The notes beneath the pieces are model-generated. The model was not told the DNA's origin. It did no database searches and was given only the letters and a program-made list of their open reading frames with translations. Of a stretch of DNA of 4,986 bases, positions 1-4,986 are shown in pieces. Source of the DNA: a virus (Duplodnaviria > Heunggongvirae > Uroviricota > Caudoviricetes); the IMG/VR virus record IMGVR_UViG_2531839104_000013. One strand, given 5' to 3'. A program made the translations under genes and the position numbers. How positions within the stretch are numbered: position 1 is the first letter of the stretch; every line of letters starts with the position of its first letter.

Positions 1-377
1 GCCGGATGAACATCGCAGGCGCGTCCTTTGCCAACATTGAAGGCGTAAAAGCGATGACCTTTGGTAACGGGCATCTTCACAACACGGTAATCAACGACCT
101 GAGCATCATCCAGCCAGAAACCTGCTTTGGTGAGTGCGTCAAAAGCGGCTTTTTGCAGATTATCCAGGTCACGGCGACGGCGATCCGGCATGTGGCACTC
201 AATACGGATTTTCACTGGCATAGCCAGGCCGATATCCAGCATGGAGCCTTTGATGATTCGGGCGACGTTATCACGGTATGCCTGCCCTTCTGCGCTGATG
301 TGCGTGCGCCCGCGATTATGCCGGTAGTAGCGATTATTGCTCGGAGGCCAGGGTAATGTGATGCTGTAGGTATTCAC
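1..377 (-). CDS. rusA: RusA-family Holliday junction resolvase, partial (3' end off window or divergent)
   Basis: Minus-strand translation from GTG at 377..375 gives (M)[106 protein letters not shown], matching RusA as I recall it. The GTG overlaps the ybcO stop (GTGA). After ~101 residues the sequence departs from the RusA C-terminus I remember and continues with no stop to position 1. Confidence 0.75.
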
Positions 378-664
378 GCCTTAATAACCCCCTCTTTCAG
401 CCAGATAACCTGTGTTCTCGCCATACCTTCCAGCGCGCATTCTTTTGCATATGCAGCATCGACAAAATGTGTGCGGCGGTCGATTTCGTCGTGGCAGGCA
501 GAACATGCAATGGTGGCAATCAAGTCTGGCGGTTTGGTACCGGTGCCGCACAATCCAGTCAGCCGGATATGTGCCAGTACAGACGTTTCAGGGTTGCCAT
601 TACATACGCCAGGGATTCTTACTTGGCATTCCCGACTACGCGCTGCTTTTCTCAAATCAGCCAT
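374..664 (-). CDS. ybcO: YbcO-like putative nuclease (DUF1364 family), 96 aa
   Basis: Translation [97 protein letters not shown] chose the ATG at 664..662, preceded by AAGGAGG, over the longer track ORF starting at 703. Stop TGA at 376..374. Confidence 0.85.
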
Positions 665-827
665 GATTCCTCCTTGCTGCCAGTCGCAACCATTTTTTAT
701 CAACCAGGCTGGCGGTATATCCGAGCAGTGTTGGTATTTCGGATGGCTTCAGCTCAGGTTTACGCTTACGACGATTTGGTACTTTGTAGATGTGTCCGTT
801 CATGACACGAATAAGCGGTGTAGCCAT
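657..827 (-). CDS. ninE: NinE-family protein, 56 aa
   Basis: Not in the ORF track (too short). Hand translation gives [56 protein letters not shown]. The ATG overlaps the ybcN stop (TAATG), is preceded by AGGAGG, and the 3' end overlaps the ybcO start by 8 nt. Confidence 0.85.
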   Translation of the reverse strand: MATPLIRVMNGHIYKVPNRRKRKPELKPSEIPTLLGYTASLVDKKWLRLAARRNHG

Positions 828-1282
828 TACGCCTCCTGCTTGTCACGCAGCAGCTGGAACTCGCAGCTCTGTGGAATAGTCAGGTGGCAGCCAATATTCA
901 TCGCCCAGGCTTCAACCTTACACAGGAAGACATACATCTCTCCGGTACCAAGATCGGAGGTATGGCGTAACGACTGGATAGTAGTGATTTCGCCGGTTAC
1001 GACATCAACCAGGTCCTTGGTTTCATAACCGAGGTATGTGTGTTTGAGAGCATCTTTTACCCATGCTGAAGTAGCGAACGATTTCCCCCTGCTGATGAGG
1101 TATTCACTGATTTCGCTGTACCACATGTGGCTGAGTGCATTCTGGGAAAGACTGCGTCTCTCGCGCCACGGTTTAAGCACCATGCGAAAGCATTTGCCGT
1201 CTTCCAGATAAGTCTGGATCTGCTGACCGACAGCGGTGAAGTTACCGCGATGTAATTTGATGCCATCTTGTGGGAGGTTCAC
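827..1282 (-). CDS. ybcN: NinB/Orf-family recombination protein (YbcN-like), 151 aa
   Basis: Track [24 protein letters not shown]...; the RSLSQN motif resembles lambda NinB. Start is GTG at 1282..1280, with GGAGG 6 nt upstream. Confidence 0.85.
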
Positions 1283-1377
1283 GCTTCACCTCCGCAGAGA
1301 TCAAACGCTGGATGCAAGACATCGCAGGTGCATTTCTGCATCTGTGACAAGGTAAGGAGTTCAGATTGTGGTCGCAT
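1279..1377 (-). CDS. Hypothetical 32-aa small ORF translationally coupled to ybcN
   Basis: ATG at 1377..1375 preceded by AAGGGGA; translation [32 protein letters not shown]; stop TGA overlaps the ybcN GTG start (GTGA). The Shine-Dalgarno and ATG lie inside the hairpin at 1373-1396. No homology recognised. Confidence 0.25.
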
Positions 1378-1396
1378 TTAAGTCCCCTTAAATGCG
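1373..1396. repeat. Hairpin/palindrome: 10-bp stem (CGCATTTAAG / CTTAAATGCG), 4-nt loop
   Basis: Perfect dyad read directly from the sequence. On the minus-strand RNA it would sequester the Shine-Dalgarno and AUG of the 32-codon ORF. Confidence 0.5.
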
Positions 1397-1401
1397 CAGA
1401 A

Positions 1402-1430
1402 GTCACCGGAGTTGTTCAAGCTCCGGTGAC
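1402..1430. terminator. GC-rich hairpin, 10-bp perfect stem (GTCACCGGAG / CTCCGGTGAC), 9-nt loop; possible terminator (tR2-like position upstream of the ninB homolog)
   Basis: Perfect inverted repeat read from the sequence. It is followed by ATTATTAT on the plus strand and TTCTGCGCATTT on the minus strand, so there is no canonical U-run and terminator function is uncertain. Confidence 0.3.
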
Positions 1431-1487
1431 ATTATTATGGAAGGTTGATACTAAAAAATCAAAAATTGAATATCATTGGCGATAGTC

Positions 1488-1510
1488 TAGCTTGTGATAT
1501 CCACAAGCTA
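1488..1510. repeat. Perfect 23-bp palindrome TAGCTTGTG-ATATC-CACAAGCTA (candidate operator or recombination site)
   Basis: 9-bp arms are exact reverse complements with a 5-bp centre; located in the non-coding spacer between ybcK and ybcN. Confidence 0.45.
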
Positions 1511-1783
1511 CTTCAATGAAGCGACGAGTAACATTTTGTGTCATCCATGTTTTTTCAGTTAAGTGCCACACCCAGTTCAAAATTTGCTGATGTGTTGAAC
1601 ATGTACTAAGCGGGATGTTGTATTCATAAGCAACATTGATTCCGCAAAATCGGTGTCGTGTCATGACCGATTCACGTTGACCTGCGCCCTGTTGAGTGCC
1701 TGGGGATATTCTTGCTCGATAGTTAATATCATAGTAGTTACTTTACTTTCATACCATAGCACGGTTGAAAAAGTGATTATTAC

Positions 1784-3310
1784 TCAAAAATAAACCTCAC
1801 CATCAACCATATATTTGAGAGCACTTATCGCCTGCTGGGCGGATATTACTTTCATTAAAGGATAGTGTTTAAAAACAATGCCATTCATAAAATAGATATC
1901 ACAGGTTTTATTATCCGTATTAATTATGATTTTTTCGAATATTTTATAGGCAAGTGTACGGCATAACTCTCGTCCATTTTTACTGGTTAAGTCAATAGCA
2001 TAAAAATCACTGAATGAATTTACACCTTTACTCTTCAAAGTTTTCAATGATACCAAAGCTCTTCGTAATTCCTTATCTAATAGTCTTATTTTCTCTGCTA
2101 TAGCGGTAACTTCAGGCGCGACAGACAATGCAACGATTAAATTATTAATTTTCATCTGAAGCTCAATAATTTTTAACTCTAAAGTTTCATTAGCATCTTT
2201 CTTGTTTTCAACTGGTTGAATTTTGCTACAATTAAAAAGCAATTCATTAATGATATTATAATCAACCAAATCTCTCTTTATTGATGGCCTGTCACATCGA
2301 TGTAATCTTCTCATCGGACAAACATAATAGCCATGCAAACTTCCAGATACCGCATGAACAATCATGGTATTACCACAAGCCTCACACTTCATAACTGTTC
2401 GAAGTAGATTTATTAGCATAGGATTCTTGCTACTATTGCTAATACCAAAAGGTGCCAACCGAATTTCCTGTACAGCGTAAAACAAATCATCTGATATGAC
2501 TCTGGGATAATAGCCAGCGATTTCACTTATCCCTTTCCCTCTTGCACGATATGAAGGTACGCATATACCTATCAGAGCTTTATTCGCTAATAATTTTTCA
2601 ATTACAGAAGGCCCCCATGCACTTTCTTTTCCTGAGAAATTCTTTACAGCATGATCATTTAAATACTTGGCTATTGCATTCAATGAGCGCCTTTCCATCC
2701 TGAGTTTAAAAATTAGCTCAATAGTTTTCACCCTGTCGGGGTCTGGAACAAAAGCCGTTCTTTTGTCATCTAAGGAGAGCCATCTCGGACAAGACGCCGT
2801 CATAATCGTACCTGATTCCAGTGCATCCTGCCGTTTTTTCTTCCATGATAATTTAACCCGACTTGACTTTATCTCGCTTTCTTCATTTGCCCTTTGTGCT
2901 ATAAGTATGGCTTTTATTAATGAATATGGCTCATTCAAAGAGTCAATATTATAGACTGTATTGTCGCAAAGAGTTATAACATCAATACCGTGATTCAAAA
3001 TCAATTTCAGACGTTCAATCGCTTCACCGACTTTTTCTCTTGAAAGTCTGTCCAGACTTTCAACTAACAATGTAGTTCCTGGCAATATATAACCATGCTC
3101 TATAGCATCTAAAAATTCCGAAAAAGCTCCTGATTGTGCATGCTTTCCTTTGAATGCACTTAATCCTAAATCTTCATATGTTATGGTATCAAGATAATAA
3201 TCACTATTTACCTTTAACCATTCAGCAATAAGTCTTCTCTGTCGGTTTAATGAGTCGCCAGACATCTGACCTGGTGATGAAAATCGCATATATGCTATGG
3301 CTTTTTTCAT
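1784..3310 (-). CDS. ybcK: Large serine recombinase (YbcK-like), 508 aa
   Basis: N-terminal resolvase catalytic motif YMRFSSPGQ (putative nucleophile Ser), TTLLVESLDRLSR motif, Cys-rich zinc-ribbon region (CEACGN...YYVCPMRRLHRC) and a coiled-coil-like region (ELKIIELQMKINNLIVALS...). AGGTG lies 5 nt upstream of the ATG at 3310. The gene is conspicuously AT-rich. Confidence 0.9.
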   Translation of the reverse strand: MKKAIAYMRFSSPGQMSGDSLNRQRRLIAEWLKVNSDYYLDTITYEDLGLSAFKGKHAQSGAFSEFLDAIEHGYILPGTTLLVESLDRLSREKVGEAIERLKLILNHGIDVITLCDNTVYNIDSLNEPYSLIKAILIAQRANEESEIKSSRVKLSWKKKRQDALESGTIMTASCPRWLSLDDKRTAFVPDPDRVKTIELIFKLRMERRSLNAIAKYLNDHAVKNFSGKESAWGPSVIEKLLANKALIGICVPSYRARGKGISEIAGYYPRVISDDLFYAVQEIRLAPFGISNSSKNPMLINLLRTVMKCEACGNTMIVHAVSGSLHGYYVCPMRRLHRCDRPSIKRDLVDYNIINELLFNCSKIQPVENKKDANETLELKIIELQMKINNLIVALSVAPEVTAIAEKIRLLDKELRRALVSLKTLKSKGVNSFSDFYAIDLTSKNGRELCRTLAYKIFEKIIINTDNKTCDIYFMNGIVFKHYPLMKVISAQQAISALKYMVDGEVYF

Positions 3311-3554
3311 GGTGACACCTGCTAACTTATGCTTTTATAAACCTTAGTGGTGAGATATAATTTTTGTTTAATTTTTATTTAAAAAGACAATTACGATCAC
3401 ACTATCTTGAATATACAACAATAATCGTATTGCAATTTGCTTACGCAATAATCTTGAAGGCACAAAAGAATACACAAAAACTAAAAACATTAACAAAAGC
3501 GGCCCATGTAAAGATATGAACCGCCATATTGCAGTCTTTTAAAAGAAATTATTT
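3311..3554 (-). promoter_or_regulatory. AT-rich intergenic region upstream of ybcK containing phased A-tracts and ATTGCAAT/GCAATA motifs; probable ybcK promoter region
   Basis: A-tracts at about 3464, 3476, 3483 and 3494 at roughly helical spacing; palindrome ATTGCAAT at 3429-3436. No confident -35/-10 pair could be assigned by eye. Confidence 0.3.
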
Positions 3555-3887
3555 TTAATGTGGTGTGCTTCGTGACAATAAATTAATAACCAACACACCG
3601 GCACAAATCAACATCATGCCTATAACGGCTGGCAGGTCCAGCCGTTGGCCGAAAAACCCCCATGATAGTAAGCTAATCAGGACAATACCGACTCCTGACC
3701 AGATAGCATAAGCAATCCCTGTAGGAATATAAGCCAGCGTCTGAGCTAATAACCAGAATGATGCACAATAACAAATAATTGTACCAACAGATGGCCATAA
3801 CCGTGTAAAACCTTCTGAAAACTTCATTAAGGTTGTACCAATGACCTCTGCAAGTATTGCACCACCAAGATAAATATAAGGGTTCAT
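3555..3887 (-). CDS. emrE: Small multidrug resistance (SMR) efflux transporter EmrE, 110 aa
   Basis: Translation MNPYIYLGGAILAEVIGTTLMKFSEGFTRLWPSVGTIICYCASFWLLAQTLAYIPTGIAYAIWSGVGIVLISLLSWGFFGQRLDLPAVIGMMLICAGVLVINLLSRSTPH is near-identical to EmrE as I recall it. I chose the ATG at 3887 over the track ORF's upstream ATG at 3941. Confidence 0.93.
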   Translation of the reverse strand: MNPYIYLGGAILAEVIGTTLMKFSEGFTRLWPSVGTIICYCASFWLLAQTLAYIPTGIAYAIWSGVGIVLISLLSWGFFGQRLDLPAVIGMMLICAGVLVINLLSRSTPH

Positions 3888-3902
3888 AACATATTCTTTC
3901 CT

Positions 3903-3937
3903 GTTCAAACTGGAGAGAATTGTACTACAGTTTGAAC
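3903..3937. promoter_or_regulatory. 10-bp perfect inverted repeat GTTCAAACTG-N15-CAGTTTGAAC enclosing a -10-like TACAAT (minus strand), about 16 bp upstream of the emrE start
   Basis: Arms at 3903-3912 and 3928-3937 are exact reverse complements; the minus-strand TACAAT corresponds to 3924..3919. Candidate operator, promoter or terminator between ren and emrE. Confidence 0.35.
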
Positions 3938-3954
3938 TCAACTCACCTGTTTCA

Positions 3955-4257
3955 TCATTGTGTACCCATTGATGTTCTTTTATATACCCTCAATACCCGT
4001 TTCATCGCGGCACTCTGGCGACACTCCTTAAAAATCAGATTCGTGCTCACCTTTCCTTCCCGTTCTTCTCTGGTAGCGAACCGGTAATACACCGTTCGCC
4101 AGACCTTACCTTCGACGACCAGGATTCCTGCCCGCGCCATTTTAGCCGCAGCCTGATTTATGCTGGTTACGGTTGCACCTGTTACCGCGGCAACGTCCTG
4201 TGCACAGAAGCTCTTATGCGTCCCCAGGTAATGAATAATTGCCTCTTTGCCCGTCAT
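3955..4257 (-). CDS. ren: Ren-like protein (lambda ren homolog), 100 aa
   Basis: Translation MTGKEAIIHYLGTHKSFCAQDVAAVTGATVTSINQAAAKMARAGILVVEGKVWRTVYYRFATREEREGKVSTNLIFKECRQSAAMKRVL... matches lambda Ren as I recall it. Its ATG overlaps the P stop (ATGA). Confidence 0.88.
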   Translation of the reverse strand: MTGKEAIIHYLGTHKSFCAQDVAAVTGATVTSINQAAAKMARAGILVVEGKVWRTVYYRFATREEREGKVSTNLIFKECRQSAAMKRVLRVYKRTSMGTQ

Positions 4258-4955
4258 ACACTTGCTCCTTTCAGTCCGAACTTAGCTTTAATTTCTGCGA
4301 TCTTCGCCAGAGCCTGTGCACGATTTAGAGGTCTACCGCCCATAACAGGAAGTTGTTTTACTGGTTCAGGTATCGTCTCACCACGGTTAATTCGCGCTGT
4401 CATACAGGTCAGTTCATCGGCAGCCTTGCGCCGTAATTCCGCGTCAGTCAGCGCATTGGCCCGCATGTTCTGGTACAAGTTGGTAACCAACCAGTAATGC
4501 GCGTTCGATTTCCACGGATAAGACTCTGCATCCGGATACAGGCCTCGCTTCCGGCAATACTCGTAAACCATATCAACCAGCTCGCTGACGTTTGGCAGTC
4601 CGGCGATAACGGATGCTTCTTCCCGGCACCATGCAACAAACTGCCCGGGTGATGGCAGAAATGGTCGATTCTGCCGACGGGCTACGCGCATTCCTGCGTT
4701 AACCTGTTCCATTGAGGTGATCCCGTTTTCCCGGAAAGCCAGAACCCACTGGCGGCGGATTTCGTTCACTTCGTTCTGGTCACGGTTAGCCAGGCTCGCC
4801 GGGAAAGTTGCCAGTAACTGGCTGAACACACCGTTGATGATCTGCGCTACCTGCTGTACCTGCGGCTTTTCGTCGTACTGTTCCGGCATGTTGTTGGCGA
4901 TCCGACGCATCTGCTCACGGTCAAAGTTAACCATCTGTGCGGCGATGTTTTTCAT
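4254..4955 (-). CDS. P: Lambda-type replication protein P (DnaB helicase loader), 233 aa, intact
   Basis: Translation MKNIAAQMVNFDREQMRRIANNMPEQYDEKPQVQQVAQIINGVFSQLLATFPASLANRDQNEVNEIRRQWVLAFRENGIT... is near-identical to lambda P as I recall it, full length. Confidence 0.95.
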   Translation of the reverse strand: MKNIAAQMVNFDREQMRRIANNMPEQYDEKPQVQQVAQIINGVFSQLLATFPASLANRDQNEVNEIRRQWVLAFRENGITSMEQVNAGMRVARRQNRPFLPSPGQFVAWCREEASVIAGLPNVSELVDMVYEYCRKRGLYPDAESYPWKSNAHYWLVTNLYQNMRANALTDAELRRKAADELTCMTARINRGETIPEPVKQLPVMGGRPLNRAQALAKIAEIKAKFGLKGASV

Positions 4956-4986
4956 AGATCCACCCCGTAAATCCAGTCTGTGTTTG
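4952..4986 (-). CDS. O: 3' end of the upstream gene, presumably replication initiator O (partial)
   Basis: Minus-strand frame ending ...NTDWIYGVDL with stop TGA overlapping the P start (ATGA). Only 11 codons are in the window, so identity rests on synteny and a weak recollection of the lambda O C-terminus. Confidence 0.5.
   Translation of the reverse strand, partial: NTDWIYGVDL

Follow-up and report, generated by a model that had tools for sequence, protein, structure and literature searches.

In phage lambda, ren and ninB lie only 73 bp apart, and nothing except the tR2 hairpin occupies the gap. The concept of the moron, an extra promoter-gene-terminator unit of deviant composition, is said to go back to Juhala et al. 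in 2000. In the DLP12 prophage of E. coli K-12, the genes downstream of ren run in the order emrE-ylcJ-ybcK-ybcL-ybcM-ylcH-ybcN, and YbcK is, to our knowledge, the sole large serine recombinase of that strain. The emrE/ybcK slot is an already known and ordinary feature, its genes being annotated in both K-12 and O157:H7.

The DNA analyzed here is a stretch of 4,986 nucleotides from a virus record (hereafter the window). An earlier inspection of its letters, referred to below as the sequence-only reading, had started from the short lambda gap and the K-12 gene order, and both were borne out. It had further proposed that an accessory (moron) insertion occupies positions 1283-3954, between ren and the ninB homologue ybcN. 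The coordinates of the features discussed are collected in Table 1.

Table 1. Features of the window, numbered from its first nucleotide.
Feature	Position	Strand	Basis or remark
selD fragment	1..56		core gene, joined to rusA interior; not prophage
ybcN, NinB/Orf-type	827-1282	-	backbone, downstream of slot; annotated in EDL933 and K-12
ylcH-like 32-aa ORF	1279-1377	-	backbone; hypothetical CDS in EDL933, ylcH in K-12
conserved twin hairpin	1373-1430	-	folding; parts 1402-1430 and 1373-1396
promoter-like TTGATT-N17-CATAAT	1434-1462	-	promoter scan
O157-lineage-specific patch, 254 bp	1464-1717	-	genome distribution
63-aa ORF	1473-1664	-	within putative scar; unmentioned in sequence-only reading
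ybcK 3' flank	1718-1783	-	common to other ybcK-carrying phages (blastn, alignment)
ybcK, large serine recombinase, 508 aa	1784-3310	-	three Pfam domains
AT-rich emrE-ybcK untranslated region, 29% GC	3311-3554	-	composition
ylcJ-like small ORF	3368-3490	-	Pfam YlcJ, E 4.5e-19; unmentioned in sequence-only reading
emrE intrinsic terminator, predicted	3498-3525	-	terminator scan; 10-bp stem then UUUUGUU
emrE, SMR efflux transporter, 110 aa	3555-3887	-	Pfam PF00893
ren	3955-4257	-	lambda-type backbone, upstream side of slot; annotation
left cargo junction	3964..3991	-	within last 9 codons of ren
P	4254-4955	-	lambda-type backbone, upstream side of slot; annotation

Identity of the locus

Positions 57-4986 of the window matched the defective lambdoid prophage adjoining icd in E. 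coli O157:H7 EDL933 at 99.9% identity, and the interval 1283-3954 matched it at 100%. The genes on the minus strand follow one another as P, ren, emrE, ylcJ-like, ybcK, the 63-aa ORF, ylcH-like and ybcN, and the ORFs together with the annotation gave the DLP12-type nin-region order P-ren-[cargo]-ylcH-ybcN-ninE-ybcO-rusA. The P-ren segment is 95% identical to lambda, and YbcN was assigned to PHROG 72 (NinB/Orf, E 6e-51). It is unlikely that 1283-3954 is an artefact of assembly: a diagnostic 281-bp segment recurs over at least 80% of its length in 301 complete genomes, and at 99% identity or more in 308. Bases 1-56 were 100% identical to selD in 5426 of 5426 genomes, and the selD/rusA join was absent from all complete genomes searched. 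An Rfam scan covering the entire window (E<=1) returned no known RNA family, which ruled out the hairpins as a described riboswitch or sRNA, and a PADLOC scan of six proteins found no defense-system match. Taken together, the interval is very probably a DLP12-type lambdoid nin-region cargo slot, filled with low-GC foreign DNA in stepwise exchangeable pieces that are swapped between prophages.

Boundaries of the slot

On the minus strand, 2672 bp separate the end of ren (3955) from the start of ybcN (1282), in agreement with the earlier estimate of about 2.7 kb. Alignment of the window to lambda, K-12 DLP12 and eight other lambdoid phages/prophages established that accessory DNA does lie between ren and the ninB homologue. 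The proposed limits of 1283-3954 did not hold, the module edges being at ~1464 and ~3981; the insertion is ~150-180 bp shorter on the ybcN side than had been supposed and starts within the last nine ren codons. The true cargo (~1464-3981) thus amounts to ~2.5 kb, as against the 73-bp ren-ninB spacing in lambda and ev243. Both edges, 3982-3991 and 1463/1464, were recovered in five independent comparisons: homology to lambda, ev243, PhiR5_1, PhiR30_1 and L010 ends at 3982-3991 (for lambda at 3982) and resumes at 1463 in every compared phage, just before the conserved twin hairpin. An emrE-only island matched the window up to 3964. Because every compared phage regains homology at 1463, the segment 1283-1463 is backbone and not cargo.

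In all cargo variants the right edge coincides with the promoter-like element at 1434-1462, and it is exactly there that an alignment of eight phages starts to agree. It overlaps an inverted repeat, TTGAT-N8-ATCAA (1445-1462), which was considered as a recombination site and rejected; the window contains only one copy, the left boundary offers no counterpart, and 31 of 200 shuffled sequences also yielded a single match. The adjacent twin hairpin folds with a dG of -31.6 kcal/mol (z -7.4), and none of 200 shuffles folded equally well. Within the inner stem of hairpin 2, both arms differ from those of the other seven sequences and pairing is nonetheless kept. The place of this structure is equivalent to that of tR2 in lambda, and it probably insulates the cargo transcriptionally from the nin genes; since no U-tract was found on the transcribed strand, a terminator role is a guess. 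The ylcH-like ORF, kept in 8/8 aligned phages, has its ATG within the 3' arm of hairpin 2 and a stop codon that overlaps the start of ybcN.

Variable cargo and composition

The proposal that this junction is a hotspot for variable cargo was well founded, as other phages carry other genes there. PhiR5_1 has Rha and small ORFs, PhiR30_1 an acyltransferase and a lipoprotein, and L010 hyp88, P22AR-C and theta; lambda and ev243 have no cargo. Variation extends to a sub-slot after ybcK, which elsewhere holds ybcL-ybcM, an alpha/beta hydrolase (esterase) or small ORFs and here holds the 254-bp patch. As the sequence-only reading had suspected, the ~1.8 kb of ybcL-ybcM present in K-12 is absent from the window. 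The genes also occur apart from one another. emrE was found in 3698 genomes and accompanied by ybcK in only 1399 of them; the ~2,300 that lack ybcK have an emrE-ybcL-ybcM island between fliE and yedK. YbcK homologues without emrE, in turn, were found within the nin region in prophages of Atlantibacter and Pantoea, and in other prophages at the tail-fibre end. The proposed insertion of accessory DNA thus holds, but the cargo is not a single moron: at least three pieces, namely emrE, ylcJ-ybcK and a variable tail, move independently of one another and together form a nested mosaic.

The interval does contain emrE, an AT-rich serine recombinase gene and a structured spacer, as evidenced by the Pfam matches, by a GC content of 0.356 in ybcK (GC3 0.287) and by the hairpins at 1373-1430. 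The GC contents of emrE, P and ybcN are 0.417, 0.531 (GC3 0.577) and 0.507, respectively, and the hand-counted contrast between ybcK (mid-30s percent) and P (mid-50s) was computed as 36% versus 53%. Overall, the cargo has a GC content of 0.363 and a GC3 of 0.29-0.35, compared with 0.51-0.53 and 0.53-0.60 for the backbone. Synonymous divergence (dS) from K-12 was 0.016 for ybcK, 0.025 for emrE and 0.147 for ybcN; the cargo is thus about 10 times less diverged from K-12 than the backbone that flanks it. The deviant composition and the dS values of ybcK and ybcN both speak for the separate acquisition that had been suggested.

In the mechanism that we propose, the slot would have been filled step by step with low-GC foreign DNA, assembled from parts that can each be exchanged separately. 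These are emrE together with its intrinsic terminator; ylcJ-ybcK, in which an intact recombinase gene follows an AT-rich leader; and a variable tail, represented elsewhere by ybcL-ybcM or other genes and here probably reduced to the 254-bp patch. The mosaic patterns suggest that co-resident lambdoid prophages may swap these pieces by recombination at short conserved boundary sequences. Such swapping would leave near-identical cargo in prophages whose backbones differ by ~6%. A different origin, in which a piece of the ancestral chromosome (emrE-ybcL-ybcM adjoining fliE) was captured by a phage and was never phage-borne foreign DNA, seems to us very improbable. It could draw on the ~2,300 genomes in which the fliE-yedK interval contains these genes and is free of genes for phage structure or replication; however, the fliE-yedK island keeps a quuD fragment and an nmpC-type porin in DLP12 order, and is therefore itself a decayed prophage. 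The GC3 of emrE, at 0.35, is moreover far under that of host genes, and a dS of 0.40 between the emrE copies of the two loci means that they split long ago.

The pieces of the cargo

EmrE matched PF00893 (Multi_Drug_Res, E 2e-35) over residues 3-94, possesses E14, and differs from its K-12 counterpart by two amino acid changes, both conservative. Its predicted terminator (fold z -4.4) lies in a 57-bp patch, 3498-3554, whose identity to other phages dropped to 66% when identities were calculated per segment. A consensus scan of the minus strand over 3888-4000 revealed no sigma-70-like site in the 67-bp ren-emrE gap, and the fold of a leader hairpin at 3903-3937 was not significant (z -1.5). Since the EDL933 icd prophage is devoid of pR and N, emrE, if expressed, must have some local promoter, and expression from such a promoter is part of the proposed mechanism. 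The gene shows the moron traits of extra DNA, deviant composition and a predicted terminator of its own; a strict moron architecture is not demonstrated, because the scan gave no sigma-70-like promoter in the gap. Within the cargo only emrE is predicted to have a moron-like terminator, and the terminator scan gave no clear intrinsic terminator downstream of ybcK.

YbcK contains Resolvase (PF00239, E 5e-19), Recombinase (PF07508) and Zn_ribbon_recom (PF13408) domains, and R9, S11, D87, R88, R91 and four Cys residues are invariant across 22 homologues. A PDB search with the single sequence found no solved structure. The family profile, which was required for a match, identified the A118 integrase (4KIS, E 3.6e-15; profile positions 190-476, C-terminal domain) and also TP901-1 (3BVP). 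The dN/dS of 0.07-0.18 points to purifying selection, and YbcK appears to be an intact large serine recombinase. The K-12 homologue of the leader 3311-3554 is a Rho/NusG-dependent terminator that silences ybcK (PMC4150792).

These properties raise the question of whether ylcJ-ybcK or emrE-ybcK is itself a self-mobile integrative cassette, site-specific for accessory slots in phages and perhaps the source of the cargo variability; we regard this as rather unlikely. The architecture is complete, with all catalytic residues and zinc-ribbon cysteines kept and the gene under purifying selection. Homologues of 40-60% identity reside in differing slots of prophages unrelated to each other, and in one conjugative element; three lineages have them in the nin region, and at least four have them immediately behind the tail-fibre assembly gene. 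The loci share little flanking sequence: the more divergent of the related pairs have ~60-125 bp in common upstream, and most of the family has none; when conserved non-coding ends were sought among 23 YbcK-family loci, divergent members shared only their first coding bases and a few close pairs shared more. There is also a clean 2083-bp presence/absence difference, corresponding to ylcJ-ybcK, between emrE and ybcL, and the emrE-ybcK joint at 3498-3554 is the divergence hotspot described above.

On the other hand, a search of the window and of the module edges for att-like pairs, which would be imperfect palindromes of about 40-50 bp with a common central dinucleotide, detected none, which does not prove absence, and neither terminal inverted repeats nor a target duplication was found around ybcK or the whole cargo, where only short AT-rich pairs at chance level occurred. 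The sole notable inverted repeat, at 1445-1462, is without a partner. The ybcK-less island is a decayed prophage in which further deletions are present, and a simple deletion therefore accounts for the polymorphism equally well; its junctions with K-12 showed only trivial T-run microhomology, by which insertion and deletion are indistinguishable. In addition to the silencing of ybcK by Rho in K-12, IS1203 interrupts the gene in several O157 strains, and the literature that we searched reported no recombination function, activity or substrate for YbcK. The broader proposal, that YbcK-type recombinases are independently mobile single-gene cassettes of Enterobacterales phage slots (candidates being the nin region and the end of the tail-fibre operon) and could catalyze the swapping of emrE-like cargo, is in our opinion just as doubtful. 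If true, such cassettes would constitute an undescribed site-specific route for moron exchange in Gram-negative phages. Our preferred reading is still that of pieces exchanged between co-resident prophages.

Of 5426 E. coli genomes, 310 contained the 254-bp patch (308 with an identity of 99% or more), and it was absent from the phage records searched. The C-terminal 52 residues of its 63-aa ORF match an 88-aa nin-region gene (homology to the L010 locus), the PHROG matches of the patch are 2559 and 12459, and a 40-bp fragment of an antirepressor gene (1681-1722) is also present. We interpret the patch as a probable recombination scar made up of gene fragments.

Comparison with described systems

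The locus is a textbook case of lambdoid prophages carrying and shuffling host-beneficial cargo, here a multidrug/quaternary-ammonium efflux pump, and cargo exchange among co-resident prophages outpaces the divergence of the phage backbone. The present data add nothing new to the established concepts of mosaics and morons. YbcK, conserved and apparently intact, has the catalytic, recombinase and zinc-ribbon plus coiled-coil architecture of the large serine recombinases (A118, TP901-1, phiC31 and Bxb1; TnpX/TndX). Unlike the large serine integrases, ybcK is not located at a prophage end, the EDL933 prophage has its own tyrosine integrase, and no att sites are known for YbcK.

With lambda ren-tR2-ninB and with the moron concept the locus shares its position in the early-right operon, the extra DNA of deviant composition and an emrE terminator of its own. 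It differs from lambda, which has no cargo and in which tR2 stands where the phage type of the window has a twin hairpin free of a U-tract. In contrast to the moron concept, emrE has no detected promoter, and the cargo is composite rather than one promoter-gene-terminator unit.

There is a close likeness to DLP12 of K-12, where the same slot and gene order are found (renD-emrE-ylcJ-ybcK-ybcL-ybcM-ylcH-ybcN) and DNA identity to the window reaches 99.4% in ybcK and 98.5% in both emrE and the ren-emrE spacer. Where DLP12 has ybcL-ybcM and ~270 bp of 3'-flanking DNA of ybcK, the window has the 254-bp putative scar; identity is 66% in the emrE terminator patch and ~94% in the backbone from ybcN to rusA. 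The window prophage is also situated at icd rather than argU, and IS3 does not interrupt its ren. Active phages, namely Perceval, 4A7, 1W, 3W, PhiR70_1 and Turner, display the same P-ren-emrE-ybcK-...-ybcN order at 95-97% identity and differ after ybcK, where they carry ybcL-ybcM, a series of small ORFs or an oppositely oriented alpha/beta hydrolase gene.

Gene content and matching prophage

ORF calling placed all genes of the window on the minus strand, with P transcribed first (Table). Positions 57–4986 shared 99.9% identity with a prophage of E. coli O157:H7 EDL933; the six differences all lay in ren and P, and the ren–ybcN interval singled out by the sequence-only reading was 100% identical. 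The matching prophage adjoins icd and carries a tyrosine integrase and an excisionase. Its replication gene O is truncated and directly abuts xis-int (EDL933 prophage locus L001, 16896–19192), and it possesses no immunity region, N or pR. Given the truncated O and the missing immunity region, this prophage is defective, and without N, pR and the immunity region its nin-region genes are not transcribable from pR. The first 56 bases of the window match an internal stretch of the core gene selD with 100% identity; at base 57 they join the interior of rusA, at codon ~108. Since this join occurred in 0 of 5426 complete E. coli genomes, it is probably a chimeric contig or artefact, or a strain-specific rearrangement.

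Table. Features of the window, in order of transcription
Feature	Position	Strand	Remarks
P	4254–4955	-	first in transcription order
ren	3955–4257	-	after P
emrE	3555–3887	-	Pfam PF00893, E 2e-35
emrE terminator patch	3498–3554		57 bp
ylcJ-like small ORF	3368–3490	-	between emrE and ybcK
ybcK	1784–3310	-	Pfam Resolvase, Recombinase, Zn_ribbon_recom
Antirepressor-like piece	1681–1722		resembles part of antirepressor genes
Patch 3' of ybcK	1464–1717		254 bp
63-aa ORF, unannotated	1473–1664	-	between ybcK and ylcH-like ORF; PHROG 2559
Promoter-like TTGATT-N17-CATAAT	1434–1462	-	promoter scan; overlaps short inverted repeat
Twin hairpin	1402–1430 and 1373–1396	-	dG -31.6 kcal/mol, z -7.4
ylcH-like ORF	1279–1377	-	upstream of ybcN
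ybcN	827–1282	-	followed by ninE, ybcO and most of rusA

Boundaries of the cargo

The ren–ybcN interval measures 2672 bp in the window versus 73 bp in lambda, where it contains only the tR2 terminator hairpin; accessory DNA is thus present here as had been proposed, and Pfam confirmed both emrE and the serine recombinase, YbcK showing the complete domain architecture of a large serine recombinase. The GC content was 0.356 for ybcK (GC3 0.287), 0.417 for emrE and 0.291 for the emrE–ybcK spacer, versus 0.531 for P and 0.507 for ybcN, in keeping with the earlier claim of mid-30s percent for ybcK against mid-50s for P. The insertion had been placed at 1283–3954; it is real, but its edges had to be moved. 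In alignments with lambda, ev243, PhiR5_1, PhiR30_1 and the prophage of strain 09A19CPO009, homology was lost at 3982–3991, within the last nine ren codons, and it resumed at 1463/1464 in all eight compared sequences regardless of cargo. These break points delimit a cargo of about 1464–3981 (2518 bp, GC 0.363) and leave 1283–1463 outside it as conserved backbone, made up of the promoter-like sequence, the twin hairpin and the ylcH-like ORF. The earlier interpretation was right, and is refined by the new boundaries and by a nested structure.

The twin-hairpin block within this backbone sits at the position of lambda tR2, and Rfam gave no match to it. Since the block has no U-tract, we can only infer a role as terminator or insulator. 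Hairpin 2, whose stem contains the start codon of the ylcH-like ORF, has a GGGA loop of the GNRA type. Both arms of its inner stem differ between the window and the other seven sequences while pairing is retained, which suggests that the structure is under selection. The block recurs once, in diverged form, 3' of a cargo gene in the 09A19CPO009 prophage locus (L010, 5819–6000).

Alternative contents of the slot and of the sub-slot after ybcK

The ren–ybcN slot is a real hotspot, as the sequence-only reading had supposed. Between flanks that stay the same, the slot holds Rha and small ORFs in PhiR5_1, an acyltransferase and a lipoprotein in PhiR30_1, and in strain 09A19CPO009 an 88-aa gene together with part of a P22AR-C antirepressor and further genes; in lambda and ev243 it is empty. 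Twelve phage records covered at least 80% of the window. Those inspected carried emrE–ybcK; among them were Perceval, 4A7, 1W, 3W, PhiR70_1 and Turner, phages that are inducible or free.

Nested within the slot, the position after ybcK is itself variable, holding ybcL-ybcM in K-12 and PhiR70_1, an alpha/beta hydrolase gene on the opposite strand in Perceval and 4A7, small ORFs in Turner and the 254-bp patch in the window. A 281-bp query spanning this patch (1464–1744) was found in 310 of the 5426 genomes, nearly all of the O157:H7 lineage, and was absent from every phage record searched. The last 52 residues of the 63-aa ORF are shared with the 88-aa nin gene of 09A19CPO009. The patch is a patchwork, which we interpret as a recombination scar.

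Separate movement of the cargo pieces

The slot cargo consists of several pieces and is not a single unit. emrE was present in 3698 genomes, and together with ybcK in only 1399. In approximately 2,300 genomes emrE lies directly beside ybcL-ybcM between fliE and yedK, without ylcJ-ybcK, as in E. coli SYNB1934, a Nissle derivative (L012, 4700–7420). The emrE of this island is 91.5% identical, with a dS of 0.40 against the window. Because part of quuD and a porin of the nmpC type lie downstream, the island, which has no phage structural or replication genes, looks like a decayed DLP12-like prophage, a domesticated remnant with only cargo genes kept. K-12 differs from the island by an extra 2083 bp, exactly ylcJ-ybcK; the junctions held no informative repeats, so that insertion and deletion were indistinguishable.

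The emrE terminator patch shared only 66% identity with K-12, Perceval, Turner and PhiR70_1, versus 98.5–99.5% for emrE and ybcK on either side; both alleles retain a hairpin followed by a U-tract. This patch marks a joint between cargo pieces. Between the window and K-12, dS was 0.016 for ybcK and 0.025 for emrE, far below the 0.147 of ybcN; exchange of cargo between prophages is thus much more recent than the divergence of their backbones.

The YbcK recombinase family

The YbcK family retains invariant R9, S11, D87, R88 and R91 and four zinc-ribbon cysteines, and its profile matched the C-terminal domain of A118 integrase (4KIS, E 3.6e-15) as well as the catalytic domain of TP901-1. These features and a dN/dS of 0.07–0.18 suggest that YbcK is functional as a large serine recombinase. 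That it forms a self-mobile cassette is nevertheless improbable: no att-like pair or terminal repeats were found around ybcK or the cargo in the window, nor conserved non-coding ends across divergent family members. In several O157:H7 strains (F7386, 149, 148, 147 and others) IS1203, of the IS3 family, splits ybcK into two recombinase fragments, so the gene is dispensable in that lineage. Transcription into ybcK meets a Rho/NusG-dependent terminator in the leader of the K-12 gene (PMC4150792). Solvent tolerance is the only ybcK phenotype reported (PMC7181518), and the literature searched held no report of recombination activity.

Homologues of 40–60% identity occur without emrE. Some lie in nin regions of Atlantibacter and Pantoea lambdoid prophages, and others at prophage ends directly after a tail-fibre assembly gene in Yersinia, Atlantibacter, Erwinia and Ewingella (L016, 8001–10432; L019, L021 and L014, near 8001), often beside a conserved small-gene pair of ~80 aa and ~110–130 aa resembling S24/UmuD. 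The 3' end of the Atlantibacter recombinase gene at the prophage end is 540 bp from that of the tmRNA gene, a position usually occupied by an integrase. In a conjugative element of Citrobacter koseri (L020, 6145–9530), with TraD and MobA/MobL nearby, a homologue of 50% identity and a 555-aa gene with a faint Shufflon_N match stand back-to-back. From this arrangement an invertase role may be suspected for some of the family.

Comparison with K-12 DLP12

The slot and its genes are already known and annotated. The locus is in line with the moron and mosaic view that is established for lambdoid phages, with the caveat that a simple consensus scan detected no emrE promoter. In O157:H7 the locus corresponds to the K-12 DLP12 region renD-emrE-ylcJ-ybcK-ybcL-ybcM-ylcH-ybcN. 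The sequence-only reading had the K-12 gene order right, and likewise the absence of ybcL-ybcM from the window: where K-12 carries these two genes as its last cargo pair, the window has the scar.
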